DNA from: Acutalibacteraceae bacterium
Lineage (GTDB): Bacteria > Bacillota > Clostridia > Oscillospirales > Acutalibacteraceae
Assembly: GCA_045531145.1 (NCBI GenBank)
Contig: JAZSDM010000007.1
Span: 1-61,232 of the forward strand
DNA length: 61,232 nucleotides
Reading direction: 5' to 3'
Shown here in pieces: positions 13,051 through 46,160 of the stretch. A program made the translations under genes and the position numbers. The notes beneath the pieces were generated by a model that had not been told where the DNA came from, made no database searches, and worked only from the letters and a program-made list of their open reading frames with translations. Each line of letters begins with the position of its first letter. Position 1 is the first letter of the stretch.

Positions 13051-13760
13051 TTTGCCACCTCCAACGCTTCGCAAAGGTCGATTGCGCCAATATAATACGC
13101 TTTTCCGATAATAGTGCCGTAAATGTCCATTTCGTGAAGTTTCTTTACATCCTCGATAGAAGAAACACCGCCGGAAGCAGTAATGTCCAAACTGTATTTT
13201 TGTGATAATTCGCGGTAAAGTTCTAAATTAGTGCCTTTCATAGCACCGTCTTTAGAAATATCGGTACAAATCACATTTTTAATGCCCAGATTTTGCATTT
13301 TTGAAAGAAAATCATCAAGAGTTAACTGCGATTTTTCTATCCAACCTTTAATTGCAATAAATCCGTCTTTAACGTCCGCACCTACTACGGTTTTCTGTCC
13401 GAATTTTTCGATGCAAGTTTTTAAAAAAGACTCGTCTTCAACTGCTGCTGTTCCTAAAATAATACGAGAAACACCTGCATCAATATATTTTTGTGCAGTT
13501 TCGATTGTGCGGATACCACCGCCGATTTCGACAAAAAGCGATGTTTCATTCACAATTTGACGCACAATGTCAATGTTCGGTGTTGTACCGAATTTAGCAC
13601 CCTCCAAATCAACGATGTGGATATGAGTTGCACCTTTTTGTTCAAAATCTTTTGCAATTTCTATTGGATTATTGCTATAAACGGTCATATTCTGGTAATC
13701 GCCTTTATAAAGACGAACTGCCTTTTTATCAAATAAATCTATGGCAGGAAAAATTATCAT
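13047..13760 (-). CDS. hisA: ProFAR isomerase
   Basis: MIIFPAIDL start, GGGIR and SGGVSS motifs. Confidence 0.93.
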   Translation of the reverse strand: MIIFPAIDLFDKKAVRLYKGDYQNMTVYSNNPIEIAKDFEQKGATHIHIVDLEGAKFGTTPNIDIVRQIVNETSLFVEIGGGIRTIETAQKYIDAGVSRIILGTAAVEDESFLKTCIEKFGQKTVVGADVKDGFIAIKGWIEKSQLTLDDFLSKMQNLGIKNVICTDISKDGAMKGTNLELYRELSQKYSLDITASGGVSSIEDVKKLHEMDIYGTIIGKAYYIGAIDLCEALEVAK

Positions 13761-24291: not shown

Positions 24292-24352
24292 ATATAATCT
24301 CCTTTCAATATATATTATATTGATAAAAGCGGTTTTAAAACTTAATATTTGT

Positions 24353-24530
24353 AAAAAAACAGACCCCAAGTATAACTAAAAGCTATACTTGGGGTAAAAA
24401 TACAATATTCAGACACCATGTATAGCAAAGAGTTACACATGAGTCTCGCAATTTAAAACAAGCCAGACTAAATTGTCATGAATGTTGACTTGTTACGTAA
24501 GGTACGCTTGCTACTCCCTCATTACAAATT
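24353..24530 (-). promoter_or_regulatory. yybP-ykoY (Mn2+) riboswitch with intrinsic terminator
   Basis: Minus strand: P1 AUGAG...CUCAU enclosing GGGAGUAGC, helix AACAAGUC/GGCUUGUU, GUCAACAU and GCGAGAC. Then a 12-bp terminator (24363-24395) plus a U run. Resembles the L. lactis yybP aptamer from memory. Confidence 0.7.
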
Positions 24531-24531
24531 T

Positions 24532-24560
24532 ATTTTACCATAAATTGTTATTAAATTCAA
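24532..24560 (-). promoter_or_regulatory. promoter driving the Mn2+ riboswitch leader
   Basis: Minus strand: TTGAAT (24555-24560), 17 nt, TAAAAT (24532-24537), just after the stop of the upstream gene. Confidence 0.5.
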
Positions 24561-24574
24561 GGGTTTTATTAAAA

Positions 24575-25552
24575 TTATTTAACTGTAGCACGTAAAATAT
24601 GTCCGCCGCCGTAAGCAGTAGCAGTTGTAACATACTGCGGAATTATTGCGGGAGTACCGTCACTGTTGCTACCTATAATTTCAAGATAAAAATCACCGTG
24701 CTTGTGACCTGCAAAAACACCCTTTACAACGTCTGCGTTATTAATTATCAATTCGTAAACAATTTTATTAGCATCTGTCCCCTTATTTCCAAGACGCATT
24801 CCGTTATAAAAGTTTTTGGGGTATGAGCTTTTGTCACCAACTAAAAGCGCCATTTCCATTGTGGTCACTTGGTCTTTTGGGTCGCCTGTGTCAATCGGTT
24901 CGTGAAAGAAAATTAAAATCGGATAGCCATTTTCTCTTGCTGATTTAATATCTTTCTTCAAAGGTTCAATCTGGTTTTCGTAAAATGTTCCTTGGCTGTT
25001 GTTCATAACAACACAAATAACCTTTTCTCCTACAAGTTTTGAAACATAGTGAATATCATGTTTCCAGTAGTTTTGTAGAATTTCGAAGCGGGATTTAAGA
25101 GTCGTGGGGTCCACTACAGGACTTTGCATTTTTCTTGTACATTCGTGACCGCCAAGACTTGCTAAAACGTCGGGGTATTTATCCCAAATCTCTTTTGTCA
25201 TTAATTCCATTGCGCCGTAGGTAAGGTAATCAATTGTATCACCGTTTACAATCATTTGGTCACAGTCGGAAATTGCTTCAAGGCACTTTCGCGCTGTAGG
25301 GACAGATTCACCGCCTGCAAGCCAAATACGATGTTCATAAGAAGACATAACAACGGGGTTTGCTTCGTCAAAATCCTGTTGGTTACAGTAATTAAAGTGT
25401 AAATCACTTACCACACCAACGGTGACTTCTTTACCAATTCCTGCATCAATTTCAACATCACGGACATATATGCCATTTTCCGCCTCATAGATGTGGTGGT
25501 TTTTGTCCTCACTGCTACCAACAATGTCTTTTACGAATCCTAAATTTTTCAT
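24575..25552 (-). CDS. metallophosphoesterase (calcineurin-like)
   Basis: VSDLHFNY, NGDTIDY, GGHE and GHKHGD metal-ligand motifs. Confidence 0.85.
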   Translation of the reverse strand: MKNLGFVKDIVGSSEDKNHHIYEAENGIYVRDVEIDAGIGKEVTVGVVSDLHFNYCNQQDFDEANPVVMSSYEHRIWLAGGESVPTARKCLEAISDCDQMIVNGDTIDYLTYGAMELMTKEIWDKYPDVLASLGGHECTRKMQSPVVDPTTLKSRFEILQNYWKHDIHYVSKLVGEKVICVVMNNSQGTFYENQIEPLKKDIKSARENGYPILIFFHEPIDTGDPKDQVTTMEMALLVGDKSSYPKNFYNGMRLGNKGTDANKIVYELIINNADVVKGVFAGHKHGDFYLEIIGSNSDGTPAIIPQYVTTATAYGGGHILRATVK

Positions 25553-25567
25553 AAAATCACCTGATTA

Positions 25568-26896
25568 TTAATTTCTTTCTATAAATACACCGTTTTCATC
25601 AAACGAAACATCTATTGACAGTTCTTGCATAAATTCAAGAATTCTTTTCTTTTCGTCGCCGTCAACAATTTTTGTATAACAGTCTTTCTGAATAGCAGGT
25701 ACAAATTTATAAGTCGGTGTACCGTCGTTGGCTAAATTTATTTCAAGTATTCCTGTATCAATGGTCTTGTCGTTAAAAATAAAGTTTCCGAGATTATACA
25801 CTATAGGTACATTGTTGTAATACTGTATTCCTTGCAGAACGTGTGCGTGTGCGCCGACCACAATATCCGCACCCGCGTCAATATATTTTGCGCCCATCTC
25901 GTATAAACCGTCTTCAATTTTGTGAGAACCCTCTGCACCCCAATGAACATAAACAATATTATAATCACACTGTTGCTCTGCTGTTTTAATCGTTTCGATA
26001 TACTTTGTAGGGTCATAAGTTCGCATTACACCTGATGAATTTTCCGTTGCTTCGGGTGTTTTAATGTTCTTTTCTGCTCTTGTTGCGGCAGAGAAAGCAA
26101 ATTTACGCCCACCAACAATAAAATAATACGGTTTTGCGGCTTCGTGGATGTTCTCACCGCCGCCAATATATGGCAACGATGCATCTTTAAGAGTTTTTAA
26201 AGTGTCTGCAAAAGCATCTGCGCCAAAATCATAAGCGTGATTATTGGCAAGTGACACAATATCCGCGCCTATTTCATCCAAATAACTTACGTGTTCTGGG
26301 TCAGCGCGGAAGGTATACATTTTACCCGAAAGTGCTGCTCCTCTGTTGCTGAAAGTAAATTCATTATTCAAAAGGAAAATATCGGCATCTTTTAATAAAT
26401 CTACAGTTTTTTCGGATAAAATTCCGTATATACCTTTTTGTCGCTCTTTCAATTTTGGCATAATTTTCCAGTTATCAGCCAACGAAATGTCACCAACAAT
26501 GCGTATGGTAACACCGTCTTTTTCGGTTTCAATAACCTTAATATCGTTGCGGTAATTGGGACTGTTAATATCGAGTACACCTGTATACATATCGTTTAGC
26601 ACAATAGCAGTGTTGCCAGTGAGTTTATGCCAATCTTCATTAGAAAAACTTCCGTTTTTTATATTTTGGTTTAAACTGTTAATAACATCTTTTCCAAAGT
26701 TATCAGCAAGCCAATCTAAAAATTCGGATGAAATTAACTTTGCTGAATAATCATCAAAATTATCGGCGTGCGATAATATTTCCAGCTTAGCTTTATCGAT
26801 ATCATCTGGTTTTACTGAAGTGTTTACACTGGTATTTGTCGAACAACCGACAAGTAAAATCAAACAAAAATACAACGATAAAATTTTATGAAACAA
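25568..26896 (-). CDS. CapA-family (PGA_cap) lipoprotein
   Basis: Lipobox LLVGCS; CapA motifs SLANNHAYDFG and VHWGAEG. Confidence 0.85.
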   Translation of the reverse strand: MFHKILSLYFCLILLVGCSTNTSVNTSVKPDDIDKAKLEILSHADNFDDYSAKLISSEFLDWLADNFGKDVINSLNQNIKNGSFSNEDWHKLTGNTAIVLNDMYTGVLDINSPNYRNDIKVIETEKDGVTIRIVGDISLADNWKIMPKLKERQKGIYGILSEKTVDLLKDADIFLLNNEFTFSNRGAALSGKMYTFRADPEHVSYLDEIGADIVSLANNHAYDFGADAFADTLKTLKDASLPYIGGGENIHEAAKPYYFIVGGRKFAFSAATRAEKNIKTPEATENSSGVMRTYDPTKYIETIKTAEQQCDYNIVYVHWGAEGSHKIEDGLYEMGAKYIDAGADIVVGAHAHVLQGIQYYNNVPIVYNLGNFIFNDKTIDTGILEINLANDGTPTYKFVPAIQKDCYTKIVDGDEKKRILEFMQELSIDVSFDENGVFIERN

Positions 26897-26996
26897 AAAA
26901 TCACCTCTGATTTGTTCGGACTAAATACATTTGATTATAACATAAAGCGCTGATTGATTTTAATGAAAAATCACCAGTTGTGTTGTTTCAATCGCA

Positions 26997-27383
26997 TTAT
27001 CGTTTTTTATAAATTAAAAATTTTCGTACTAAAAAATTATAAATGAACACTATTGCAGTGGCGACAATTTTAGAAGACATTTCGTTAAAGTTGAAAAAGT
27101 CTACAGATACCAACATAATAATAAGATTCATTATCAATCCTACGATACTTGCTATATAAATTCCTATAATTTCTTTTAATACGGATTGTCGGTTATCTTT
27201 AAATACCAAACAACGACCTGCAAACCAATTTACAAAGGTAGATAAAACATAAGCGATTATAGTTGCTAAAGTGTAGTGAACAGATAATTTGTCAAGAATA
27301 AAAAATAATACCCATTCAGTAATTGTTGCAATTCCGCCTACAATTAAATACAAGAACAATTCTTTTATATTACTTCTTTTCAT
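26997..27383 (-). CDS. GtrA-family membrane protein
   Basis: 128 aa, 4 TM helices, GGIATITEW N-terminal signature; overlaps the GT2 gene end. Confidence 0.85.
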   Translation of the reverse strand: MKRSNIKELFLYLIVGGIATITEWVLFFILDKLSVHYTLATIIAYVLSTFVNWFAGRCLVFKDNRQSVLKEIIGIYIASIVGLIMNLIIMLVSVDFFNFNEMSSKIVATAIVFIYNFLVRKFLIYKKR

Positions 27384-28329
27384 AATCTTCTGTTCGCTCG
27401 CTAATTATATATCTCGGACGATTTTTGACTTCCATATATATTTTTCCTATATATTCACCAATAATGCCTATACAAATTAGTTGTATTGAAGAAAGTAAAC
27501 AAATTGAAGCAACTATACTTGCCCATCCAGTTGCCGCAAAGCCCAATAACTTAGCTAAAACTGCCCATCCTAAACCGACAATGCTCACTGCGGACATTAT
27601 TATACCGATTGTAGAGATTAATCTAAGCGGTTTAACCGAAAGACTTGTAATTCCATCAATGGATAGTGCTAACATTTTTCTTAATGGATAATGAGATTCC
27701 CCTGCAAATCTCTCTTTTCGTTCATAAAAAACGGAGCTGGATTTAAAGCCAACCAACGGTATCATACCACGTAAAAATAAATTTACTTCTTTAAAATTAG
27801 CAAATTCACTTAAAACCTTGGCGGAAATTAAGCGATAGTCTGCATGGTTAAATACTACTTCTGCTCCCATAGCATTTAAGAATTTATAAAATCCTTCTGC
27901 AGTTGCTCTTTTAAAAAATGTATCTGTTTTGCGGCTACTTCTAACACCGTACACTACTTCTGAACCGGATAAATATTCTTTTACCATTTGCGTCATAACA
28001 GAAATGTCATCCTGACCATCACAGTCGATAGAAATTGTAATGTCACATTTGTCTTTTGATTCCATAAGTCCTGCCAAAACAGCGTTTTGGTGACCTCGAT
28101 TGCGACTTTGTGTGATACCGATATACGACGCATTTTCAGTTGCTAAGTATTTGATTATATCCCATGTGCTGTCTTTACTACCATCATTCACAAACATAAT
28201 TTTACTTTTGTTTGATATTAAATCTTCTGATTGCATAGATTGAAGCTGCTCCAAAAAAAGAGGGGCAGTAATCGGCAACACCTTTTCTTCGTTATAACAC
28301 GGTATAACTATATATAACGTCGGTTTCAT
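27370..28329 (-). CDS. family 2 glycosyltransferase (GtrB/CsbB-like polyprenyl-phosphate glycosyltransferase)
   Basis: VIPCYNEE, NDGSKD and DCDGQDD motifs plus two C-terminal TM helices. Confidence 0.88.
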   Translation of the reverse strand: MKPTLYIVIPCYNEEKVLPITAPLFLEQLQSMQSEDLISNKSKIMFVNDGSKDSTWDIIKYLATENASYIGITQSRNRGHQNAVLAGLMESKDKCDITISIDCDGQDDISVMTQMVKEYLSGSEVVYGVRSSRKTDTFFKRATAEGFYKFLNAMGAEVVFNHADYRLISAKVLSEFANFKEVNLFLRGMIPLVGFKSSSVFYERKERFAGESHYPLRKMLALSIDGITSLSVKPLRLISTIGIIMSAVSIVGLGWAVLAKLLGFAATGWASIVASICLLSSIQLICIGIIGEYIGKIYMEVKNRPRYIISERTEDYEKK

Positions 28330-28570: not shown

Positions 28571-28600
28571 AAAGCACCACGATTAGTATCGTGATGCTTT
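28571..28600 (-). terminator. hairpin terminator behind the displaced spoIVB 3' end
   Basis: Minus strand: AGCATCACGATA-CTAA-TCGTGGTGCT immediately after the fragment stop codon (28602). Confidence 0.6.
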
Positions 28601-28601
28601 T

Positions 28602-28756
28602 CTATGATGCTTTATTTAATTGTTCATTTGCAACACTTTGCGCCGTTTCTAACATATTCTCTGCGAAGATGGCGTAGCCTTTTGTCGGGTCATCAACGAG
28701 AACATGGGTTACAGCGCCGATTAATTTACCGTTTTGGATAATCGGGCTGCCTGACA
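28602..28756 (-). pseudogene. spoIVB: displaced 3' fragment of spoIVB (copy 1; encodes ...[50 protein letters not shown])
   Basis: 28673-28756 is an 84-nt run identical to 37604-37687 of the intact gene. No N-terminal 380 codons. The 28602..28871 track ORF is a fusion with unrelated sequence. Confidence 0.85.
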
Positions 28757-28908
28757 CAAGTGTGTCAATATAGGACCAACATGTTTTTTGAAATTTATAC
28801 TTTACTACTCCCCTTAAACGCAAAGAAACCGCGCTAAATCGGCACGATTTCTTTGTATTATAGGGATTCAATTTTTGATTATACGTGTTATATTAGGACC
28901 AACAAATA
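28752..28908. repeat. conserved island-end module, copy 1
   Basis: Core palindrome TGACACA-AG-TGTGTCA. CAATATAGGACCAACA (to 28781). Hairpin CAAAGAAACCG...CGGCACGATTTCTTTG (28821-28855). GTGTTATATTAGGACCAACAAATA (28885-28908). The same blocks and spacing recur at 34409-34566. Confidence 0.8.
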
Positions 28909-28911
28909 ACG

Positions 28912-29745
28912 CTAATTAAATACAGATTTAAGTAAATTCATACTTTCAACAGTTGGTTTTTCAAAAATACAAGCATCTTTTCCAATAGCACAATATTTGT
29001 TTTCCCCCATAGCGTGATATGGCAAAAGTTCCACCTTTTCCGGAGCCCCGCAATTATCTAAAAAATCCTTAATTTTTTGCATTTCTTCTATACTGTCGTT
29101 AACATCGGGGATAATGGGAAAACGAATCCATAATTTCGCCTTTCTTTCAAACAACCTTTTAAGATTGTCTAAAATCAATTCATTACCCACACCCACATAC
29201 TTTTTGTGTTTATCGGTGTCAAAGATTTTAATGTCATAGAGGAACAGATCGGTATAAGGTAGAATTTTTTCAAAACTTTCAAAGGGTATATGTCCTGCAG
29301 TGTCAACTGCGGTATGTATTCCGTTTTCTTTGCATTTTTTAAGGATTTCACAAAGAAAATCTATCTGTAACATACATTCTCCGCCTGAAAATGTGACACC
29401 ACCGCCTGAGTTTTCATAGTAGGCTTTATCTTTGATAATCTCATCAAAGACTTCGTCCACAGTATATTCCTTGCCACAGACTTTACGTGCATCAACAGGG
29501 CAGTAAAAGGTACATTTTCCGCATAAATCACACTTTTCAAAATTATACGGACAAACTTCTTTACATTTTCCGCAACCTTTGCACTTGTCCTTATAAAACA
29601 TCATCTGCGGTTTAAAATCCTGACTTTCGGGGTTGTGACACCAAGCGCATTTTAAATTGCAGCCTTTAAAAAACACAGTTGTTCTAATACCAGGACCGTC
29701 AACAAAGGAATTTCGTTCAATATCAAAAATTACAGCAGTAGACAT
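28912..29745 (-). CDS. glycyl-radical enzyme activating protein (radical SAM)
   Basis: CNLKCAWCHN (CxxxCxxC) plus two ferredoxin-like Cys clusters (CKGCGKCKEVCP, CDLCGKCTFYCP). ATG at 29745 after TAGGAG. Confidence 0.92.
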   Translation of the reverse strand: MSTAVIFDIERNSFVDGPGIRTTVFFKGCNLKCAWCHNPESQDFKPQMMFYKDKCKGCGKCKEVCPYNFEKCDLCGKCTFYCPVDARKVCGKEYTVDEVFDEIIKDKAYYENSGGGVTFSGGECMLQIDFLCEILKKCKENGIHTAVDTAGHIPFESFEKILPYTDLFLYDIKIFDTDKHKKYVGVGNELILDNLKRLFERKAKLWIRFPIIPDVNDSIEEMQKIKDFLDNCGAPEKVELLPYHAMGENKYCAIGKDACIFEKPTVESMNLLKSVFN

Positions 29746-29756
29746 TTTTGCTCCTA

Positions 29757-30899
29757 TCAATAAGTTAAATTATAGTTATACAATTCTTTTAAATCTTTAA
29801 AAATATCTTCAAAATCACTATTATCAATCAGTTCCGCTCTTACAAAACGGTAAAGCATAGAACGTAACCCTTGTGAAGGCGAAGAGAGTAAATGTGTTCC
29901 AAAATAGATGCTGATTTCGTTTTGGGTATCTACAGCAAGATATGCGCCGGCCGCTCCGCCCCAACCAAAATCAATATTCTTCTGGTCGCCTTTTGGGCAG
30001 CGCACACCCAAACCATAGCCATGAGTATCCTTGGTCCAATAGGTTCTTTTTTGATGCTCGCTTAGACGGTCGGTAATCATTAGCTTAAGAGTTTCGGGTT
30101 TTAATAATTTGTGGGTGCGAAGACCTTCCAAAAATTTTATGTAATCGTCAACTGTTGAAATACCGCCTGCTCCACCGCTTGCGTACTCGCTACCGATTTT
30201 ATAATTAACTATAGGCTTGCCAACATTAACTGCTTTACCATTTTCAAATCTATATTGCGGTGCAATAGTTTCAATTTCAGTTTCGGGTAACATAAATGTA
30301 GAATCATTCATCCCTACAACATCAAAAATATTCTTTTTAACATAGGTTTCGAATTTTTCGCCCGATACCACCTCAACAAATGCCGCCAAAACATCGTGGC
30401 AAAGGCTATATTCCCATCTATCGCCAGGTTCAAATAATAACGGTTCTTTTGCTAAATATTTCATCGCCTCTCGAGTAGGACATTTTCCTTCTGTTTGAGT
30501 AATAGCATTTTTCAATTGCGGAGAATAGCAGTTATAGGAAAAACCTGCCGTCATTTCAAATAAGTGTTTTATTAAAATCGGGTTTTCGGCTTTTTTAATA
30601 CCATCGTCTGTATTCACCGTCATTTCTTTAAATTCCGGCATATAATCCGAGAGTTTGTCCTCAAGCGAAAACAATCCCTTTTCCCATAACTGTAAAGCTG
30701 CTGTACAGGTGATAACCTTGGAACAGGAATAAATGTTATATCTTTCTTTGCCGTTAATGGGTATTTTATTCTCTAAATCAGAATATCCGCCCATATATCT
30801 CAGCACACATTTACCGTCTTTGTGCACACAAAGATCAAAGCCAGGCACAACACCCATTTCTAAAAATGAATCACAAAATTTTTTAATATTTTCAAACAT
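29757..30899 (-). CDS. serine hydrolase (beta-lactamase / class C esterase fold)
   Basis: S-x-x-K motif YSCSKV near the N-terminus; about 380 aa. Lies between the GRE and its activase. Confidence 0.8.
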   Translation of the reverse strand: MFENIKKFCDSFLEMGVVPGFDLCVHKDGKCVLRYMGGYSDLENKIPINGKERYNIYSCSKVITCTAALQLWEKGLFSLEDKLSDYMPEFKEMTVNTDDGIKKAENPILIKHLFEMTAGFSYNCYSPQLKNAITQTEGKCPTREAMKYLAKEPLLFEPGDRWEYSLCHDVLAAFVEVVSGEKFETYVKKNIFDVVGMNDSTFMLPETEIETIAPQYRFENGKAVNVGKPIVNYKIGSEYASGGAGGISTVDDYIKFLEGLRTHKLLKPETLKLMITDRLSEHQKRTYWTKDTHGYGLGVRCPKGDQKNIDFGWGGAAGAYLAVDTQNEISIYFGTHLLSSPSQGLRSMLYRFVRAELIDNSDFEDIFKDLKELYNYNLTY

Positions 30900-30999
30900 A
30901 GATATCACCCTAAGTATTTTTATTGCTTTTATAATAACACATTTTTTCAGAAAAACAACTTTTTTCGAATAGGCATTATTTGCATTACCTATCGGACAT

Positions 31000-31125
31000 T
31001 CAAGATTTGCTATTCTGAATCATCATTATCCAAAACAGATTGCACCCTTTGAAAAACACCGTTGTTCTTATCCCCGGTCCGTCAACATAAGAATTTCGTT
31101 CAATATCAAATATCGCAGCTTTCAT
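31000..31125 (-). pseudogene. 5' remnant of a second GRE-activase gene
   Basis: MKAAIFDIERNSYVDGPGIRTTVFFKGCNL parallels MSTAVIFDIERNSFVDGPGIRTTVFFKGCNL of the intact activase. It breaks off just before the CxxxCxxC motif and starts 4 nt after the GRE stop. Confidence 0.8.
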
Positions 31126-31128
31126 CTT

Positions 31129-33252
31129 TTACATCTCTTTTTCTGTTCTTGTAATTATTTCGTCCTGTAAATCTTCATTAAGTAAAACAAAGTAATCAGA
31201 AAAACCGGAAACACGCACTCTTAAATTTTTATATTTTTCAGGAGTAATTTGTGCATTTTTTAAATCTTCTTTCGATACATAGTTCAGTTGATAATGAAGA
31301 CCGCCTAATTTAAAGTATGTTTCAAAAAGCTTTACAAGTTTATCAAAATTATCATCGTCTTTTACAAGCTGCTCGTCAACCAAAACATTGGTAACCGTCG
31401 AACCGCAAAAGCACAGATGCGCATTCAGCTTAGCAACAGAGCTTAAAAGTGATGTAAGACCTTCGCGGTCGCGCCCTTCGTTTTGTCCGATTCCGTAGGA
31501 AATCATATCGCCGTCGTATCTTCCATCAGGCGTTGCCTTGGTTACATCTCCAAACCATTTATGATGCTGATTGTAGCCAATCAAATTTCCGTGGAAAAAT
31601 TTATATCCCATGTCGGATTCTTTGTCTTTCATGTATTGATATACAGATGCGCCGAAAAGATTTCCGCAGTAATTGGATGTTTCATCGTCATTGCCGAAGA
31701 AAGCGCCTGTTTGCGCTATTTCGGCATGGAGCTTTTCATAACCCTGCCAATTAGATTTTAAAGCATCAACAACTGTTTTCATAGAAATCTTTTTTTCATC
31801 AAAAACAAACTGCTTTATAACTGCAAGTGAATCAATAACCGTTGAGAGACCTATAAGGCTAAGTTCAGCAATTGCATTTTTTGCCCCACCTTGCGTGACA
31901 CTTTTGCCACGCTCTATTGAACCTTCAAAAAACATTGTACTAACCAAGTTTACATCTCTTGCACGTACAGCCTGAAATTTATTGTAATATTCTATATCTT
32001 TTTTTAGAACATTATGAAGTTCCCGTTCAAATACTTTGTAAAATTCATCAAAGGTTTTCACATTGCATATTTCTTCTGCACAATTATGAAAAGTGTTTTC
32101 AATACTTTTAGCAATATTGGTTGTACAACCCCCCATGAAAATTCCTCCCGGCAACTGCGGTTCATTACAACCAACCATTGTATATTTGCACGCTAATTCA
32201 TAGGGAAAACCGGCAATTTCCGTAAATGCTTTTATTCTTGGCTCATCATTTACGAAAGCAATTCTTTTGTTGGTGTCTTTTCTTTCACAGTCCATTACAT
32301 ATTTCAGAACTTCTTCGGGCGTTTTCTTTGTCCAGCGAAGGGAAATTTCAGGAATGAATGTGGGAAGCTCCAGCATACTGTCCAGAACAAGCCTTGAAAG
32401 TTCATTGAAACCATCTTCACCATTTTCAAGGTAGCCTCCAATACAGAAATGAGACTCACCACCTCGATAAAAACGGTCTGATTTTATGGATATTCTTGCC
32501 TGAAGCATTAAGAAAAGCTCTTGCAAATATGCTTTTGCATCCTCTTTGGTTAGAGTGCCGTTTGCAATTTCGTTTACGTAAAATGAATACAAATATCTAT
32601 CTATTGTACCTATACTATCAGGAACGAAGGCATAGATAACGTAAACTGTCAGCACCGCTTCATAAAAGCTTTGCGCAGGGTTTGCAGGCACGTTTTTAAG
32701 CGCCTTTGAAAGTTTGACAAGGTTTGCTTTATATTCCGGATTTTCGATCTCTTGGGCTTTTTTTAATGCAGCATCAGAACACTTTTTTGCCCAGCCGATT
32801 ATTGCATCTGCAATAATATCAATCCCGTCTAAAAACTCAAGTTCTTCTTTTTGACTATGTGTTTTTTTAGATTGTGCAATTTCTGCCTTTAAACCGTTAA
32901 TTCCAATTTTAATTACCTTTTCAAAATCGGCAACGCTGTGCTGCCATTCAAATGTGCAAAGCCCGTCTACAGGATTATTATAATATTCTTTGTATATCTT
33001 TCGCCAGTTTTCATGACCGCAACGATTGAATATGTCTCCCATTACGTCACCCTCAAAACGCAGATAGCCTGTCAAAGCCGTTAATTCGCTCACAAAGGGT
33101 TTTTGATTTAAGATATATTCCTTTGCCCTTTTTGCACTCATTATAACAGGCGACAGGAATATATCCTCCCTGTCATATTCCGTTTTGGTATGCTCGATAT
33201 ACATCTGACCTTTCACTGTCATATCAGCTAACTTTTTTATTCTTTCATTCAT
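31129..33252 (-). CDS. glycyl-radical enzyme (PFL-like family), substrate unknown
   Basis: C-terminal glycine-radical motif RVRVSGFSDYF and Cys-loop VGCNEP. 707 aa, shorter than the characterised GREs I recall. Confidence 0.88.
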   Translation of the reverse strand: MNERIKKLADMTVKGQMYIEHTKTEYDREDIFLSPVIMSAKRAKEYILNQKPFVSELTALTGYLRFEGDVMGDIFNRCGHENWRKIYKEYYNNPVDGLCTFEWQHSVADFEKVIKIGINGLKAEIAQSKKTHSQKEELEFLDGIDIIADAIIGWAKKCSDAALKKAQEIENPEYKANLVKLSKALKNVPANPAQSFYEAVLTVYVIYAFVPDSIGTIDRYLYSFYVNEIANGTLTKEDAKAYLQELFLMLQARISIKSDRFYRGGESHFCIGGYLENGEDGFNELSRLVLDSMLELPTFIPEISLRWTKKTPEEVLKYVMDCERKDTNKRIAFVNDEPRIKAFTEIAGFPYELACKYTMVGCNEPQLPGGIFMGGCTTNIAKSIENTFHNCAEEICNVKTFDEFYKVFERELHNVLKKDIEYYNKFQAVRARDVNLVSTMFFEGSIERGKSVTQGGAKNAIAELSLIGLSTVIDSLAVIKQFVFDEKKISMKTVVDALKSNWQGYEKLHAEIAQTGAFFGNDDETSNYCGNLFGASVYQYMKDKESDMGYKFFHGNLIGYNQHHKWFGDVTKATPDGRYDGDMISYGIGQNEGRDREGLTSLLSSVAKLNAHLCFCGSTVTNVLVDEQLVKDDDNFDKLVKLFETYFKLGGLHYQLNYVSKEDLKNAQITPEKYKNLRVRVSGFSDYFVLLNEDLQDEIITRTEKEM

Positions 33253-33415
33253 GTTAATAAACCCCTTCTCACAAAAAGTTTTACATTTGTAGTTTATTCC
33301 AAATACTTATTACAGTAAATAGACAAAATACTTTATTTGCACTTTTCGATACTGTTTAATGGAATTATATATTGCATTATGACCGTTATATGTTAAAATA
33401 TAGGTGGGTGGTACT

Positions 33416-34201
33416 ATGAACAATAAATTTGCAATAACAGACATTAGACGGGTTGTTCTCGTAGGCGAAGATGAATACAAAGAAACTGTAACATCATTTT
33501 CTCATAACAAATGGTGTGCCAATGAGCTGATTTATAATCTTTCAGGGGAATCCACTGTATTTTTTAATGGAAAATCCTTAGAGAATACAAAAGATACGAT
33601 TCGATTTCTTCCTCAAGGTGAAATTTCCGAATATGTTGTTAAAAGAAAAGAACGCGGGGAATGTATAGATATATGTTTTGATTCTGATTCACCTATTGCA
33701 GAAGAGGCTTTTATTTTAAAACTCAGTCAAAGTGAAAAAATCAAAAGTCTTTTTAAAAAGATTTTTTCAGTTTGGGTTGCAAAGGGAGACGGATACTATT
33801 TAGAATGTGTTTCCATTATTTACAAAATATTTGCAGAACTGCAAAAGAAAAATTATATACCTGAAAATCAGATTCTTGCCATAAAACCTGCCATCGATTA
33901 CATAGAAAACCATTTTCTTGAGAAAAAAATTACAGCAGAAGAACTTACCTCCTGCTGTGAAATCAGTTATCCTTATATAAAAAAATTATTCGTTAAAAAG
34001 TTTGGTATGCCACCGATAAAGTATAGCATACAACTTAAAATCAACTATGCCTGCGACCTTTTAAAATCAAATTTGTATACAATTTCACAAATTGCTGAAA
34101 TGTGCGGTTATAATGATATATACTTTTTCAGCCGACAGTTTAAAGAATATATGGGTATCTCCCCCACGGCATTTATTGAAAAATATAAATCCTCAAAATA
34201 G
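33416..34201 (+). CDS. AraC-family transcriptional regulator
   Basis: N-terminal cupin-like domain; C-terminal double HTH (ISQIAEMCGYNDIYFFSRQFKEYMGISPTAF). Divergent from the GRE gene. ATG at 33416. Confidence 0.88.
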   Translation: MNNKFAITDIRRVVLVGEDEYKETVTSFSHNKWCANELIYNLSGESTVFFNGKSLENTKDTIRFLPQGEISEYVVKRKERGECIDICFDSDSPIAEEAFILKLSQSEKIKSLFKKIFSVWVAKGDGYYLECVSIIYKIFAELQKKNYIPENQILAIKPAIDYIENHFLEKKITAEELTSCCEISYPYIKKLFVKKFGMPPIKYSIQLKINYACDLLKSNLYTISQIAEMCGYNDIYFFSRQFKEYMGISPTAFIEKYKSSK

Positions 34202-34204
34202 TAA

Positions 34205-34237
34205 AAGCATCCCGAAAATAATCGGGATGCTTTTTTA
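34205..34237 (+). terminator. rho-independent terminator of the AraC gene
   Basis: AAGCATCCCGA-AAATAA-TCGGGATGCTTTTTT. Confidence 0.8.
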
Positions 34238-34282
34238 TGAAACGTCTTTCAAACGGGACGTCGAGGCGCCGTCCCCTACATT

Positions 34283-34413
34283 ATTCGCAATAGATTGCGC
34301 TGTTTCAAGCATATTCTCTGCGAAAATAGCGTAACCCTTGGTTGGATCATCGACTAATACATGCGTAACGGCTCCAACTAACTTACCATTCTGGAGTAAA
34401 GGGCTACCCGACA
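34283..34413 (-). pseudogene. spoIVB: displaced 3' fragment of spoIVB (copy 2, diverged; ...[42 protein letters not shown])
   Basis: 5 substitutions over 42 aligned residues versus the intact gene, with many silent nucleotide changes. The reading frame then runs into a GC-rich repeat (VGDGASTSR). Confidence 0.8.
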
Positions 34414-34566
34414 CGAGTGTGTCAATATAGGACCAACACAGTTTTTGTAACAACGATTTTCAATTTTTCCTTTAAACGCAAAGAAACCGTACCAATTAGG
34501 CACGATTTCTTTGAATGATAGGAAATTAACTTTTTATGGTATGTGTTATATTAGGAACAACAAATA
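34409..34566. repeat. conserved island-end module, copy 2
   Basis: GACACG-AG-TGTGTC core. CAATATAGGACCAACA. Hairpin CAAAGAAACCG...GGCACGATTTCTTTG (34479-34513). GTGTTATATTAGGAACAACAAATA (34543-34566). Confidence 0.8.
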
Positions 34567-34635
34567 GAGACATTTAAGCGTCTTCCAATATCATGAATTG
34601 CACATTTTATTTTTGTTATTTTAATTCTACTCAAA

Positions 34636-36057
34636 CTATTTGGTTTCGCTTATATTAATCCACATTGCAGGTCTAACGGTTATGCTCTCGTTATCAGGTG
34701 GTAAGGAGTTAGTGCTAATTCCGCCCTTACCTGAGACGATGCTATGATTTGAATTCATATCGGGATTGGTTCTTAACCACCACCATGCATGCTTTCCATC
34801 TCCATAGCTTATGTCCGCACCCATTTTTTTAGCATACTCAGTTGGTTTTACTTTTCGTGATTTACTTGTTGGAAAATATTTTTCAATCTCCTCTTCACTA
34901 AAAACATAAAGAAAATCGTTTGTTGGATTCTTTGTTACTTTAATCGTTTTTACTCCTTGAATTACTGCACCGCTTTTTGTTGTGAACGAAGAACCGTTCC
35001 GTTGATGTGTATAATCATAGTTTTCTACCATAGTTTTTTGAATGTGTTTTTTCTCGAAATCACTAAACGCCTCATTATAGAAAGAATCGTTCAACCAATT
35101 CCTGAGATAGCTTGTTTCCCAAGTGGCGCTCGATTTAAAAGCCGGGGTGTAAGAAAGAACATCTTCATTAGCAAAAGGTATACAATCTAATCCATATTTA
35201 CTAATCAAAAGTGCTTTTTCTTCTGCCTTATCAAGAACTAACCATTCAATATTTTCAGATCCGTTATTGAAATCTCCATCTTGCTCATAAGAACCGAACT
35301 CCACATAATCACCAACATTTGCTTTTTGCATCTTTTGCAGCTTTATTGGCATGTCGATTTCTTTCAATTTATCAGCGCTATCTTTATATTTAGGTATAGC
35401 TTTCAAAAGAATTTCAGCATTAATAAATTCGTTATCATCAGTAGATTCAATTGCTTTTTTATAGAATAATTCTTTGACTTTTCCGTCATATTCAAACCAT
35501 TTGCTATCAGAATATGATTTAGTTGCTTTTTCAATCTTTCCATTAGATAAAAGATTTTGATAATATGAAAATCTTCCCAACGGAATGAAAACGAAATAAG
35601 TCAGTACGAGTAATACAATTAAAGATATACTAGAAATTGAAAATATAATTGCTCTTTTTTTAGATTTAGCTCTCTTTTGATTGATTTTCTCTTCAACTAA
35701 AGAATAATACTTTTTAAGCTGTTGCTTGTAATTATCATCAGCATATTTAACAGCCATTTTAAAATCATCAAATTTAGTGAGTTTCTTATTAACCGAAGTA
35801 AGGCTTACTAAATCAGATAATTTAAGTTTCGCTAATAATCTTCCAATATACGCTCTTGCCTTATTATCATTATTCACAATGGCAAAATCAAATATCTCTT
35901 TAGCTTTTTTCCATTCTTTTAATTCAAGATAAGTATAACCTTTTTCTATATCCGAAATAGGATTCGATTCAGCAATTACCTTTTCGACAATACTTCCACA
36001 AAACGGGCAATATTCACTGTCGTTAGGCACATTGTTATTACACTGCTTGCAAATCAT
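34636..36057 (-). CDS. zinc-ribbon / TPR-like / single-TM protein with DUF6273-like extracellular domain
   Basis: N-terminal CKQC...CPFCG, TM helix AIIFSISSISLIVLLVLTYFVFI, C-terminal IEWLVL...WWWLRT...VRPAMWI signature. Confidence 0.75.
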   Translation of the reverse strand: MICKQCNNNVPNDSEYCPFCGSIVEKVIAESNPISDIEKGYTYLELKEWKKAKEIFDFAIVNNDNKARAYIGRLLAKLKLSDLVSLTSVNKKLTKFDDFKMAVKYADDNYKQQLKKYYSLVEEKINQKRAKSKKRAIIFSISSISLIVLLVLTYFVFIPLGRFSYYQNLLSNGKIEKATKSYSDSKWFEYDGKVKELFYKKAIESTDDNEFINAEILLKAIPKYKDSADKLKEIDMPIKLQKMQKANVGDYVEFGSYEQDGDFNNGSENIEWLVLDKAEEKALLISKYGLDCIPFANEDVLSYTPAFKSSATWETSYLRNWLNDSFYNEAFSDFEKKHIQKTMVENYDYTHQRNGSSFTTKSGAVIQGVKTIKVTKNPTNDFLYVFSEEEIEKYFPTSKSRKVKPTEYAKKMGADISYGDGKHAWWWLRTNPDMNSNHSIVSGKGGISTNSLPPDNESITVRPAMWINISETK

Positions 36058-37289
36058 TTAATATCCTCCTTTATAACCCTTAAACCACACTTGTGACAAA
36101 AATCACTGTCATCTAAAAGTCTTGTTCCACATTTACGGCAGAATAAAACTTTTGGAGAGCTTTTAATTTCAACCTTTTTTTCTATAATGGGTTGTTCATA
36201 GTTTGATTTAATTTCTTTTATTTCTTCGAATTGTGCAATAGGTTCATTTTTTGGTATAGTTTCTTCAATTACATTTACTTTAAATCTGCCGATAAAATTC
36301 TCATTATTTTCAAATTCATTTTCAGTAATTTCAACATCTTTTTTATTGTTTTCTTCTGCAATTAGTTCTTGGTATATTTCATCGGTTGAAATATCGTATT
36401 TCAATCCAATATCATTTTTTGATTTATTTATCAAAATTTTATAATTTGTAATGCTCCATAAAAAAATTGCACTTCCAGGTGCTACTCCTCCTTTAAGAAA
36501 GAACATAACAAAAAATGCGATAATTGCATATATAATAGTTATCTTTTTTGCTTTATTTTTAGGTAACGCCTGTTTTTTGATTTTATATCTATAAATTATT
36601 ATAGGCAAGGAATATACGGATATTGTGATAATCAAACTTAAAATTATATTAAGAAAGTTTATTTGCAAGTTGCCGTCACTGTTTATGTATATAACGTCAT
36701 CACTTGTATCAGCAACATATGGATATTTAACACTATTCATCATTGTTACAAATTCTTGATAATGGTTTTTTTTAGCTAAATCACCAAAATAAAACTGATA
36801 ACAATATCCATTTTCAAAATGTAAAAGCATAGTCATTGTTATATCAGCAGAAATATCGAAGACGGACATTTCTTTATCTACAGATATTTCTAAATATTCT
36901 GTTCCACTATAATGCACTGTATCAATTTCTGCATCAAGATTATCGAAGCCCATCAGTTGTAGTATTTCTTCTTTTGTGAAATTATCCATAAGTTCTGAAT
37001 GATTTATGTCAGAACGAGAATAACCAACCTTATCGCTATCTGGCATTTCTTCCCATACATCAGCATATCCAAACAAAATTGTTCCACCATCTTCATTTTC
37101 AGGTGAATACGCAACTTTAATAAATTCTCTGTCTTCGCTTAAAGGTGTTTCGTTCCAACCTTGCGGAATAGCAAAAGAAATTCCCGTAACTGAATCTTTA
37201 TATGTATTTGAACTTTCAGCACTAACCGAAACAGCAAAAGAAAGCACTATTAGAATAGTAATAAAAAATGTCAATAATCTTTTAAACAT
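36054..37289 (-). CDS. signal-peptide / multi-TM protein with C-terminal zinc ribbon
   Basis: Signal peptide ending VSA-ESS, extracellular domain, TM helices, cytoplasmic tail ending CRKCG...CHKCG. ATG at 37289 after GAGGA. Its stop overlaps the next gene's start (ATGA). Confidence 0.7.
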   Translation of the reverse strand: MFKRLLTFFITILIVLSFAVSVSAESSNTYKDSVTGISFAIPQGWNETPLSEDREFIKVAYSPENEDGGTILFGYADVWEEMPDSDKVGYSRSDINHSELMDNFTKEEILQLMGFDNLDAEIDTVHYSGTEYLEISVDKEMSVFDISADITMTMLLHFENGYCYQFYFGDLAKKNHYQEFVTMMNSVKYPYVADTSDDVIYINSDGNLQINFLNIILSLIITISVYSLPIIIYRYKIKKQALPKNKAKKITIIYAIIAFFVMFFLKGGVAPGSAIFLWSITNYKILINKSKNDIGLKYDISTDEIYQELIAEENNKKDVEITENEFENNENFIGRFKVNVIEETIPKNEPIAQFEEIKEIKSNYEQPIIEKKVEIKSSPKVLFCRKCGTRLLDDSDFCHKCGLRVIKEDIK

Positions 37290-37315
37290 AAAAATCCTCA
37301 CACCCTATTGTTTAT

Positions 37316-37344
37316 ATTATATAACATTTTGACATTTTTTTCAA
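37316..37344 (-). promoter_or_regulatory. sigma-A-type promoter for the island A gene pair
   Basis: Minus strand: TTGAAA (37339-37344), 17 nt, TATAAT (37316-37321). Confidence 0.45.
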
Positions 37345-37383
37345 TTATAAATATAGACACATTTCAAGAACATAAATAAGGCT

Positions 37384-37527
37384 CCCTCTGACGAGGGTGC
37401 TATTGTAGAGGCGGGTTTCCATGACCGCCCGTTTCATATATCATATATTCGGGAGGGCGCAGAGACCCTCCCCTACAATTTAAAAAATTAATCGATGTTT
37501 CGTAGGGGCAGGTTTCTATGCCCGTTT
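37384..37527. repeat. cluster of three GC-rich GTAGGGG-hairpin (REP-like) units
   Basis: TGTAGAGGCGGG-tttccatgac-CGCCCG; GGGAGGG-cgcagagac-CCTCCCCTACA (inverted); CGTAGGGGCAGG-tttctat-GCCCG. Strongly GC-rich in an AT-rich background. A fourth unit lies at about 34252-34282. Confidence 0.7.
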
Positions 37528-37532
37528 ATATT

Positions 37533-38777
37533 TTATGATGCTTCTTTTAATTTTTGTTCAGCAACACTTTGCGCGGTTTCCAGCATATTTTCGGCGAAGA
37601 TGCCGTAGCCTTTTGTCGGGTCATCAACGAGAACATGGGTTACAGCGCCGATTAATTTACCGTTTTGGATAATCGGGCTGCCTGACATACCTTGCACGAT
37701 ACCGCCGGTTAAAGATAAAAGGCGTTCGTCTGTTATTGTTACTAAAATATTTTGCGTTTTGGAATGGTAATTTGCGGTTCGGATTTTAATTTCACAAGAA
37801 TATACTTTAGGCTCGCTGCCGTCAACTGTGGAAATTATTTGCGCTTCACCGTCTTTAATTTCCTGTTTTAAAGCGATTTCGGTTAATTTTTGAAAAGCCA
37901 AATCACCGCTCAGGCGTGAGTAAATACCGATTTCACTGTTTAAACTGATATCACCGAGTGTCTTGTAATTTAGTTTACCCGTTAGTTTACCTGGGCTACC
38001 TACTTCACCTTTTTCAACCGATAAAATCTCTGCCGAAACTATTTGCCCCGAATTGATTTTCAGCAATTCTTCGGTATCACTGTCACACACACCGTGCCCT
38101 AAACCGCATATAACACCGCTTGCAGGGCTGTAAAATGTCAGAATACCTATCCCTGCTGAACTGTCCTTAACCCAGATACCGATTTTATAAGTCCCGGTTT
38201 CTGCCGATTTTACAGCACAAAATGAAAAATGAATTTTTGTACTGTCACGCAAAACTTCAAACTTCATATTTTTACCGTTTGAATTTTCTACAATTTTTAC
38301 TAAGTCTTCGTTTGTATAAACTTTTTGTCCGTCAACCGATACAATATAGTCGCCCGTTTTTATACCCGCAGTTTTTGCAGGGTTTTTGTTACCGCTTTGG
38401 GTAGCAACATCTGTAATTTCTGTCACAAGGACACCTTCGGTGTAAATTTTCATACCAAACGGACTGCCGAGAACTGCTACATGCAATTCGTCAACAACCT
38501 CAACGCTGACCTGTGTAATTGGTATTATACCAAATGCTTTAAGGTCAACAGAAAATTCTTCACCAACGCTTTTTGAGTTGCTTATTTGTGAAAGCTTTGC
38601 ACCGTTATAAACTGCAGTTACGGGCACAAATGACGAAATTTTAAGTGTTTCGCCTTTTTTGATTTTAAAATCGTCACTTAAATTGATATTAAGATAAATT
38701 ACCGCAGAAAATACTGTCATACAAAACAGTGTGAATATTAAAAATAATGTTTTTGTTAATATGCGAGCAAATTTCAA
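37533..38777 (-). CDS. spoIVB: SpoIVB peptidase (S55 family sporulation signalling protease)
   Basis: N-terminal TM, PDZ region, peptidase domain with [20 protein letters not shown]. Likely TTG start at 38777 after GGGAAGTGA; the track ORF extends to 38834. Confidence 0.9.
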   Translation of the reverse strand: MKFARILTKTLFLIFTLFCMTVFSAVIYLNINLSDDFKIKKGETLKISSFVPVTAVYNGAKLSQISNSKSVGEEFSVDLKAFGIIPITQVSVEVVDELHVAVLGSPFGMKIYTEGVLVTEITDVATQSGNKNPAKTAGIKTGDYIVSVDGQKVYTNEDLVKIVENSNGKNMKFEVLRDSTKIHFSFCAVKSAETGTYKIGIWVKDSSAGIGILTFYSPASGVICGLGHGVCDSDTEELLKINSGQIVSAEILSVEKGEVGSPGKLTGKLNYKTLGDISLNSEIGIYSRLSGDLAFQKLTEIALKQEIKDGEAQIISTVDGSEPKVYSCEIKIRTANYHSKTQNILVTITDERLLSLTGGIVQGMSGSPIIQNGKLIGAVTHVLVDDPTKGYGIFAENMLETAQSVAEQKLKEAS

Positions 38778-38835
38778 AAAAATCACTTCCCATCTTATAT
38801 TTTGCACAGAAAATGATTTTTTTATAAAAAACAAA

Positions 38836-42928: not shown

Positions 42929-42938
42929 TAAAACCAAT

Positions 42939-43090
42939 GCAGAGTAGAATACCGAGCGTTAAGTGCTGTACGGACGGGGAGTTGCTGTACGGACGAAGAT
43001 TTTCGCGGTTCGGTTTTCGCATCCCGCTGCCGTGTAATATCTGGTTATTTGTTTGCCTCCTATTATTCGGAAAAACGGGTAATAGGAGGT
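42939..43090 (+). promoter_or_regulatory. THF (tetrahydrofolate) riboswitch with SD-sequestering / terminator hairpin
   Basis: GCAGAGUAG...CGAGCGUUAAGUGC...GGGGAGUUGC...ACGAAG...GCAUCCCGCUGC matches the THF-I aptamer pattern. Hairpin CCTCCTATTATTC/GGGTAATAGGAGG (43056-43089) covers the AGGAGG of folT. Confidence 0.8.
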
Positions 43091-46027: not shown

Positions 46028-46036
46028 TTCTTTGTT

Positions 46037-46160
46037 CTCTGATGCTGACGGAAAAGTGATAAATTTCACCAAGTGGAGCACCACATGAATCAGGGAATAT
46101 ATTTTGCCGACCGTCTGGGCGCTCTTATTCCACAAGGATTAAGTGCGCCCTTATTTTTTT
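46037..46160 (+). promoter_or_regulatory. ZTP (pfl-motif) riboswitch with intrinsic terminator
   Basis: CUGAUGCUGACGGAA...GUGGAGCACCACAUGAAUCAG...GCCGACCGUCUGGGCG closely parallels the Fusobacterium ulcerans ZTP aptamer. The 3' GGGCGC is shared with the terminator stem (46117-46150) plus a T run. Confidence 0.8.

Follow-up and report, generated by a model that had tools for sequence, protein, structure and literature searches.

A putative accretion array of recombinase-less cassettes at an integration hotspot inside the sporulation gene spoIVB

Tandem accretion and cis-mobilizable elements (CIMEs) have been described for integrative and conjugative elements (ICEs) of the ICESt1/ICESt3 type in Streptococcus thermophilus (work of Pavlovic 2004 and of Bellanger 2011, reviewed in PMC5704250). 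A comparable arrangement appears to exist inside the sporulation gene spoIVB of an Acutalibacteraceae bacterium (assembly GCA_045531145.1), where a stretch of 61,232 nt (contig JAZSDM010000007.1, positions 1 to 61,232; hereafter, the window) carries an intact spoIVB gene followed by two cargo islands, cassettes B and A, each ending at a displaced copy of the spoIVB 3' end. The ICESt1/ICESt3 CIMEs keep both attachment (att) sites and are devoid of integration and transfer genes; both window islands similarly lack such genes, as judged from Pfam searches with their six genes and tblastn searches with large serine recombinase (LSR) proteins, and both are probably non-autonomous, CIME-like units. 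The likeness would extend to stacking, since integration regenerates the target, including the gene 3' end, and to the excision of composites that moves units in cis. However, the Streptococcus elements rely on tyrosine integrases acting at the 3' end of fda, whereas the spoIVB arrays are associated with LSRs, lie at an active-site codon, and are found in about 40% of species across the whole family.

Among LSR-encoding elements, Tn4451/Tn4453 (recombinase TnpX) and Tn5397 (recombinase TndX) resemble the elements found at spoIVB in having a single TnpX-like LSR and a 2-nt crossover. They differ in using a GA crossover, entering several sites, disrupting the target, and carrying no replacement gene end, whereas the spoIVB elements appear to use one highly specific site with a TG crossover and to bring a gene-restoring segment of 155 nt. 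Serine-recombinase integrative elements have been described as disrupting their target genes (PMC5704250), and elements that carry a 155-nt replacement end and leave the gene working would be an exception to that pattern. The skin element in sigK and SPbeta in spsM are likewise LSR-borne elements in sporulation genes, and some elements at spoIVB (in the loci designated L021 and L175 and the triple-LSR element of L155-L179) split their target in the same manner. However, skin and SPbeta interrupt mother-cell genes and are excised in the mother cell, whereas spoIVB is expressed in the forespore, i.e., in the germ line, and its reading frame in the window is intact, so that there is no skin/SPbeta-type interruption there. 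With integrons, the window array shares an ordered series of recombinase-less units, each with its own recombination site and the newest presumably beside the insertion point, but it has no adjacent integrase gene, no attC hairpins, and no tyrosine recombinase, and its units carry their own regulators and terminators; the likeness is functional only.

The region is interpreted here as an array that grew by accretion, via an LSR system, at a hotspot of site-specific integration within spoIVB, a reading to which we assign a probability of roughly 78%. An earlier note on this DNA, made from the sequence alone, knew of no described integration hotspot in spoIVB, and full-text searches of the open literature (in serine recombinase, attB, intervening element, and prophage contexts) likewise returned nothing on spoIVB as an integration target. 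If correct, gut Clostridia would have a new and widely used integration hotspot within one of their core sporulation genes, and the arrays, which bring AraC-regulated catabolic operons, glycyl radical enzymes (GREs), surface proteins, and defense genes, would contribute to the flux of accessory genes in Acutalibacteraceae. An LSR clade with a conserved 50-bp target and natural stacking may also serve serial genomic integration.

The displaced spoIVB 3' ends and their common starting point

In the window, spoIVB occupies positions 37533..38786 of the minus strand (GTG start at 38786, as in its orthologues, or at 38777) and encodes a PDZ domain and an S55 peptidase domain, the latter matching the Pfam family PF05580 (Peptidase_S55) over profile positions 2-210 of 210. 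A repeat search revealed that 157 nt recur three times in direct orientation, at 28600-28756, 34257-34413 (68% identical), and 37531-37687 (91%), with start-to-start spacings of 5657 and 3274 nt; just beyond the two downstream copies lies a two-copy repeat of 109 nt with 80% identity (28811-28919 and 34469-34577). The repeat search and alignment confirmed that the downstream copies are 5'-truncated fragments of the spoIVB 3' end, as the earlier note had reported, and that copy 1 shares with the gene an identical run of 84 nt, consisting of a TG dinucleotide and the following 82 nt; overall, 114 of its first 120 nt are identical. This copy spans 28571..28754 on the minus strand (fragment at 28602-28754 by alignment, hairpin terminator at 28571-28600 from a terminator scan) and is the oldest one, presumably the native 3' end of spoIVB. 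Copy 2 (34235..34411, minus strand, with a terminator at 34204-34233), which on the accretion model is the left end of cassette A, is diverged throughout (87 of the first 120 nt identical), just as had been noted; its end, however, is not at 34283, where the earlier note had placed it, as the fragment has a stop codon of its own at 34235, and its tail contains an insertion rich in GC. The current 3' end of the gene (51 codons and the stop codon, 37533..37685, minus strand) would, on the same model, be the left end of cassette B, although it is a mosaic (see below).

Three-way alignment and inspection of the raw sequence show that spoIVB and both fragments, which comprise its last 51 codons, become similar at one and the same base. 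The junction reads GGT ATG/TCA GGC AGC in spoIVB, with the slash marking the boundary, and CTT GTG/TCA GGC and CTC GTG/TCG GGT in the fragments, so that only TG and what follows are common to all three. The inferred crossover dinucleotide at the head site is found at 37686..37687 (minus strand), where it forms the last two bases of a Met codon followed by the Ser codon TCA (37683-37685); the corresponding attR-type sites, in which TG joins the arm described below to copies 1 and 2, lie at 28755..28756 and 34412..34413, respectively, both on the minus strand. The Ser residue next to the breakpoint aligns with the position of S378A, the catalytic Ser position, in the crystal structure of Bacillus subtilis SpoIVB (9LNF; PMC12502668), and the codon just 3' of the breakpoint therefore encodes the catalytic serine, which the earlier note had regarded as likely.

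The distribution of such arrays was surveyed using one genome per species, which yielded 80 spoIVB loci, all of them from Acutalibacteraceae or allied Oscillospirales metagenome-assembled genomes. Displaced 3' copies with truncated 5' ends, one or two per locus, were found behind intact spoIVB in 23 of these loci, and every displaced fragment begins at residue 364 of the 414-residue query, reading V/L-S-G-S-P; the proposed coincidence of the breakpoints thus holds at the level of a single base in the window and extends to 23 other species. Downstream sequence of at least 3 kb was available for 58 of the loci; fragments are present in 20 of these, nothing more than remnants of the arm or module described below in 4, and no scar in 32. 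Empty, single-island, and double-island states all occur among the relatives, and upstream synteny is conserved across the loci whereas the downstream content is not. About 40% of related gut Clostridia use the hotspot. The 35 islands of the surveyed loci are 1-8 kb long and encode, among others, AraC regulators (11), sugar and other catabolic enzymes, and BspA-type surface proteins; no recombinase family, including those of the tyrosine type, is among the 25 most frequent Pfam families of 76 island proteins.

In the nearest surveyed species (L001), whose SpoIVB is 76% identical to that from the window, spoIVB is followed by the two genes of cassette B (65% and 78% amino acid identity) and then by a module of the same family and a decayed fragment, while cassette A is absent. 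These locus states, together with the tandem LSR elements with the same ends that are described below, support the sequential accretion at one attB that had been proposed from the window, where the fragments were expected to be missing from relatives without the cargo.

The right-end module and the recombinases next to it

In both window fragments, TG is preceded (in the gene sense) by a non-spoIVB module of ~150 nt that is absent from spoIVB itself, in agreement with the earlier observation that the two fragments continue into the same sequence. In cassette B, the module spans 34414..34564 of the minus strand and includes a P arm (34414-34438), a hairpin (34479-34513), and a second P-like repeat (34543-34562); in cassette A, it spans 28757..28906, also on the minus strand, with the P arm at 28757-28781 (one mismatch, CTTG for CTCG), the hairpin at 28821-28855, and the second repeat at 28885-28904. 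The terminus of the module is the 25-nt arm TGTTGGTCCTATATTGACACACTCG, and the 20-mer TGTTGGTCCTAWWTWDACAC occurs in the window four times, twice per module, compared to 0.11 occurrences expected from shuffled sequences, none of which reached four. Across species, the 25-27 nt immediately preceding TG vary very little and come in two variants, TGTTGGTCCTATATTGACACACTCGTG and TGTTGTATCCTGCTTGACACACTCGTG; of 29 junctions, 16 conserve the 14 nt adjoining TG exactly and 10 more differ at a single position (hand count from the junction listing), whereas the flanking DNA of the species that carry these junctions is only ~73% identical.

The window modules belong to a family of 12 copies that have, in addition to the second P-like repeat, a hairpin of 15 bp. 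All 12 retain this hairpin, and changes involving G:U pairs are seen only on the spoIVB-sense strand; given that these one-sided changes convert G:U to A:U or G:C, pairing fits the spoIVB-sense strand alone. The hairpin may serve as an RNA terminator or stabilizer for the cargo operon. A TATAAT-like box is located just upstream. No family was matched at the module in an Rfam scan of the window, the module had no match in annotated phage or plasmid collections, and neither its exact 20-mer nor a guessed symmetric attP was found in viral contigs.

The nature of the arm becomes apparent from loci where spoIVB is disrupted. The L021 gene is interrupted at this very TG, beyond which the sequence reads TGAGTGTGTTATAATAGAAACAACA, and L175 has a similar junction; both continuations are inverted copies of the arm, with dyad matches at 19-21 of 25 positions (mean of 7 and maximum of 16 in 10,000 shuffles). 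TG is the sole sequence common to attB, attR, and the attL junctions of these two loci. LSR att sites measure ~40-50 bp and show an imperfect dyad around a 2-nt crossover common to attP and attB, and an arm, a 2-nt center, and an inverted arm represent the anatomy of an LSR attP; the arm is accordingly the P half-site of TnpX-like LSRs. In the gene-restoring elements, the second half of the site is the spoIVB 3' end rather than a P-like arm; its P-like symmetry (9 of 25 positions) is near chance.

A scan of viral contigs with a 14-mer of the arm gave 67 matches, of which three were real (L097, L101, and L115). Another match, in L106, has a palindrome around it, but no LSR is encoded among the open reading frames (ORFs) of this contig. 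Three tandem LSR genes are found in L097 and L115, the last of which stops ~95 nt short of the arm, with a spoIVB fragment behind the arm, and a single LSR gene has the same position relative to the arm and fragment in L101; in L115, the LSR element is accreted onto another unit. When the proteins from these three contigs were used in tblastn searches, an LSR gene was found directly behind intact spoIVB in L064, the only such case among the 80 loci; compared with viral contigs, the L064 LSR had one distant match only. The arrangement of intact spoIVB, a terminator, and then an LSR with the Pfam domains PF00239, PF07508, and PF13408 is shared by L064, L149, L153, L154, L238, and L239. The LSRs of these gene-restoring elements form four lineages, ~50% identical to one another, and the closest solved relative is the TnpX catalytic domain (E = 1e-18). 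The four elements with visible right ends (L149, L153, L154, and L239) consist of the LSR gene, cargo, P arm, TG, and a displaced fragment, with TG-to-TG lengths of 8,994, 11,246, 7,631, and 5,998 bp; the cargo behind the LSR includes, for example, Fic with a two-component system, an S8 peptidase with BlaI/BlaR, and AbiEii.

The LSR-encoding gene-restoring elements end exactly as the window islands do, and the module is linked to mobile DNA, as the accretion model had required: its arm is the right end of the LSR elements in L149, L153, L154, L239, L097, L115, and L101. The window P arms match those of the LSR-bearing L149 and L154, and both cassettes are flanked by spoIVB 3' copies that begin at TG. 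Two other possible origins of the sites, dif/Xer-type sites and IS200/IS605-type hairpin ends, were dropped after LSR genes had been found next to the arm.

These findings also bear on the possibility that the islands are of the kind that tyrosine integrases insert at gene 3' ends and that bring a long block of identity, with the integrase gene since deleted. An element-borne 3' end that restores the gene is typical of such islands, and serine-recombinase integrative and mobilizable elements have been described as disruptive (PMC5704250). However, an LSR gene lies directly behind the replacement 3' end in 6 of 6 complete elements, the partner arm has dyad symmetry around a 2-nt center, as in LSR sites, and tyrosine recombinases are absent from the 25 top island families mentioned above; Pfam searches revealed no tyrosine integrase gene beside the att site in the window, either. 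We consider this origin very improbable. The earlier model is accordingly refined in that the recombinase would be a TnpX-like LSR rather than a tyrosine integrase, with the crossover most likely at TG.

The disruptive LSR elements interrupt spoIVB at that same TG and leave it unrestored; their attP is symmetric, and the number of their tandem LSR genes ranges from one to three. Their junctions are found at L021:11090-11125, in L175 (reverse strand, spoIVB end near 4799), in L155-L179 (~13270-13445), at L097:7990-8100, and at L115:6540-6700. One triple-LSR element, that of L155-L179, recurs in human-gut metagenomes beside at least four different host 3' fragments. Such disruptive relatives, common in human-gut metagenomes, split a forespore-expressed gene, which raises the question of host sporulation. 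A small serine recombinase of 215 amino acids is encoded at L004:11269-11916, starting 20 nt after the spoIVB terminator, in a locus where no displaced fragment was detected.

The proposed integration cycle and the fate of the recombinase gene

The target, attB, is the stretch encoding GGIVQGM and the residues that follow, with the crossover most likely at the TG that ends the Met codon before Ser378. On the accretion model, the integrating elements would belong to a clade of elements with TnpX-like LSRs, whose architecture is seen in other genomes and whose recombination we infer. In the circular form, one side of TG would be the 25-nt P arm that ends the conserved right-end module of ~150-200 nt, and the other side would be the last 51 spoIVB codons and a terminator, normally followed by the LSR gene and the cargo. 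Exchange at TG, presumably catalyzed by the LSR, would swap the resident 3' end for the copy brought by the element, so that the gene stays whole, and the old 3' end would be pushed downstream, to a position behind the P arm. The new junction would be spoIVB-like on both sides and hence reusable, and elements would stack with the newest one next to the gene; the 3' copies within one genome would subsequently exchange sequence by gene conversion. According to work cited in PMC3783163 and to the review PMC5704250, TnpX and TndX each perform excision and integration alone, which makes the reuse of sites plausible.

The heads of the six LSR-bearing elements share a synonymous-site signature, TCKGGGTCKCCAGTS... 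(TCK GGG TCK CCA GTS ... AAT GGN AAA TTA GTA), in the first 36 nt after TG (L149:9751, L064:11084, L153:9746, L154:242, L238:9695, and L239:9812). The L154 and L239 signatures are identical at 36 of 36 positions, while their LSRs are 48% identical. The signature may represent a half-site under constraint that is embedded in the coding sequence.

Several loci connect islands that have an LSR gene with those that do not. The right end of the L149 element (213 nt) has 91.5% identity with the corresponding end of the LSR-less island of L041 and 88% identity with that of L043. In L013, the terminator and leader that precede the LSR gene in L149 and L064 are kept up to the ribosome-binding site, after which comes unrelated DNA with no LSR gene. 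The L154 locus is a tandem array in which a complete element precedes another 3' copy and a gene for an LSR that breaks off after 149 amino acids and is 98.7% identical to the L153 LSR (L154:7873-8736); accretion at a regenerated site and the decay of a recombinase are therefore directly visible in it. L048 and L050, in turn, have in common an LSR-less island that is 92% identical at the nucleotide level, compared to 73% in the flanks. Exactly after ...ACACACTCGTG, i.e., between the P arm and TG, this high identity comes to an end, and the fragments beyond are host-specific; identity drops at TG in the same way between L149 and L041. Given that both copies of the L048/L050 island have the same LSR-less left junction, the island moved when it was already LSR-less, apparently either in trans or within a composite.

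The same pair of loci is informative with regard to homologous recombination as the sole process, by Campbell-type single crossovers or double-crossover imports via the conserved 3' end. Homologous exchange on the repeats has clearly occurred: in many genomes, the head 3' end and the displaced copies share long identical runs bounded by diverged stretches, the identical block being internal to the 3' copies in L048, L049, and L053. In addition, the left boundary of the L048/L050 island is not at TG but within or behind the 3' end. However, Campbell-type integration was rejected, given that the identity between L048 and L050 drops exactly at the boundary of the P arm and TG even though homology continues beyond it. 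Furthermore, the fragments of 23 species all start at one nucleotide, every fragment is adjoined by an invariant non-homologous arm of 25 nt, and this arm has an inverted partner at disrupted-gene junctions and adjoins LSR genes. Homologous recombination alone is accordingly a highly improbable explanation of the arrays.

As a secondary process acting on copies brought together by LSR-mediated accretion, gene conversion accounts for the 84-nt run that spoIVB has in common with the oldest copy, as the copies exchange sequence after integration. The head of L048/L050 is host-like in its first ~100 nt and goes with the island in its tail; in L149/L064, the middle does not follow the element, unlike the tail and the ~27 nt that come after TG. 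The suggestion that the active-site serine and the last ~50 residues of the current SpoIVB are element-encoded was therefore correct only in part: by comparison of the copies, the present C-terminus is a mosaic rather than purely element-encoded, its first 82 nt being identical to the oldest copy.

The earlier note had left open whether the window islands are trans-mobilized, CIME-like units or decayed elements, and both options find support, in the LSR-less transfer of the L048/L050 island and in the truncated LSR of L154, respectively. We consider it somewhat more probable than the opposite that the window cassettes descend from LSR-bearing elements that lost the recombinase, and rather less probable that they were acquired already without it. 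Either way, they could be mobilizable by a cognate LSR in trans or by a neighboring element in cis.

A stronger version of the second option is that the islands never had a recombinase of their own and are integron-like units that any cognate LSR can insert, excise, or reshuffle. About 35 islands in 23 species lack an LSR gene, which is present in one of the 80 loci (L064), and tblastn searches revealed no LSR pseudogene fragments in the surveyed LSR-less islands. The L048/L050 island, with its shared left junction and sharp boundary between P arm and TG, moved already LSR-less; units with AraC and GRE genes are LSR-less in three arrays, at differing positions; the P arms are nearly invariant although non-coding; and relatives of TnpX, according to work cited in PMC3783163 and to PMC5704250, need no directionality factor. 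However, the array adjoins no resident recombinase gene, unlike an integron platform, and L154 and L013 show LSR loss from complete elements. Most LSR-less heads are missing the LSR-head nucleotide signature, there is no evident mechanism for cargo capture without an LSR, and movement in cis, in a composite with an LSR-bearing neighbor as in L115, is equally possible. This option is thus a tentative one. It is likewise possible, though less probable than not, that the spoIVB hotspot is an LSR-based counterpart of the integron, in which each insertion, given that the right half of the donor site is a spoIVB 3' end in its own right, rebuilds the target and leaves a donor site; the LSR in such a system could come from a neighboring unit or from a disruptive ICE- or prophage-like element. 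If this were true, the active-site codon of a forespore sporulation protease would be a family-wide platform for gene exchange.

Certain observations weigh against the accretion-array model or against the present activity of the window cassettes. The model rests wholly on comparative sequence, and exact-sequence look-ups of the window SpoIVB and of a glycosyltransferase (GT2) protein encoded in the window found no other contig and hence no locus state from the same species. The tblastn searches with LSR proteins gave no match anywhere in the 61-kb window and no LSR pseudogene remnant in either island, so that decay in situ is unsupported there. The head copy in the window does not have the LSR-head signature; if the signature is required for recombination, the window cassettes may be poor substrates, and their present-day activity is uncertain. 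A crossover at TG predicts that the 3' end should come wholly from the donor, but the head copies of the window, L048, and L050 agree with the other copy of their host over the first ~80-110 nt, and gene conversion has to be invoked to reconcile the two. Finally, cassette B shares 80% nucleotide identity with its L001 counterpart, while the flanks are 73-81% identical, and it may simply be old and vertically inherited.

Cargo of the cassettes and neighboring features

Cassette B is 3,274 bp and cassette A is 5,657 bp long, and the sites formed by P arm, TG, and fragment are near-perfect in both. Behind spoIVB, cassette B has a spacer (37302..37532, minus strand) that contains several GC-rich hairpins resembling terminators or repetitive extragenic palindromic (REP) sequences, followed by a cargo of two membrane/zinc-ribbon genes (34636..37301, minus strand), which code for proteins of 415 amino acids with a Zn_Ribbon_1 domain and of 473 amino acids with a DUF6273 domain (Pfam). 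The cargo of cassette A (28912..34201, both strands) comprises five features assigned with Pfam: an AraC regulator (33404-34201, plus strand) and, on the minus strand, a GRE (31129-33252), a 41-codon activase remnant (31000-31125), a beta-lactamase-fold protein (29757-30908), and a radical-SAM activase (28912-29760). None of the six island genes matched recombinase or transposase families in Pfam, which agrees with the earlier description of the islands as recombinase-less, and no recombinase was found within 22 kb upstream or 37 kb downstream of the window spoIVB.

LSR-less units similar to cassette A, with a fragment, a divergent AraC gene, and a GRE gene, are located at the head of the array in L237 and internally, behind another P site, in L234. 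The remnant at 31000-31125, directly 3' of the GRE gene, corresponds to the 41 N-terminal codons of a second glycyl-radical activase (compare 29656-29736), and L237 has two separate GRE cassettes, one of them with a beta-lactamase-fold gene; on account of these two observations, cassette A resembles a fusion of two cassettes.

GC-rich hairpin repeats similar to REP sequences or miniature inverted-repeat transposable elements are present in this AT-rich genome at 37302-37532 and 34250-34280, as well as at L048:11235-11365 and L050:13725-13870. They are found behind the current spoIVB stop codon and as in-frame insertions in the tails of fragments (window copy 2, L043, L048, and L049).

Beyond copy 1, the window encodes GT2, GtrA, and PGA_cap proteins and a 560-amino-acid protein (22687-28329), in place of which L001 has an ORF of 733 amino acids; this variable region beyond the last fragment may hold older cassettes with decayed sites. 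Elsewhere in the window, a THF riboswitch (42938-43031, 83 bits) and a ZMP/ZTP riboswitch (46031-46127, 52 bits) precede ORFs of the same strand, and a gene for tRNA-Leu(CAA) is found at 229-315.

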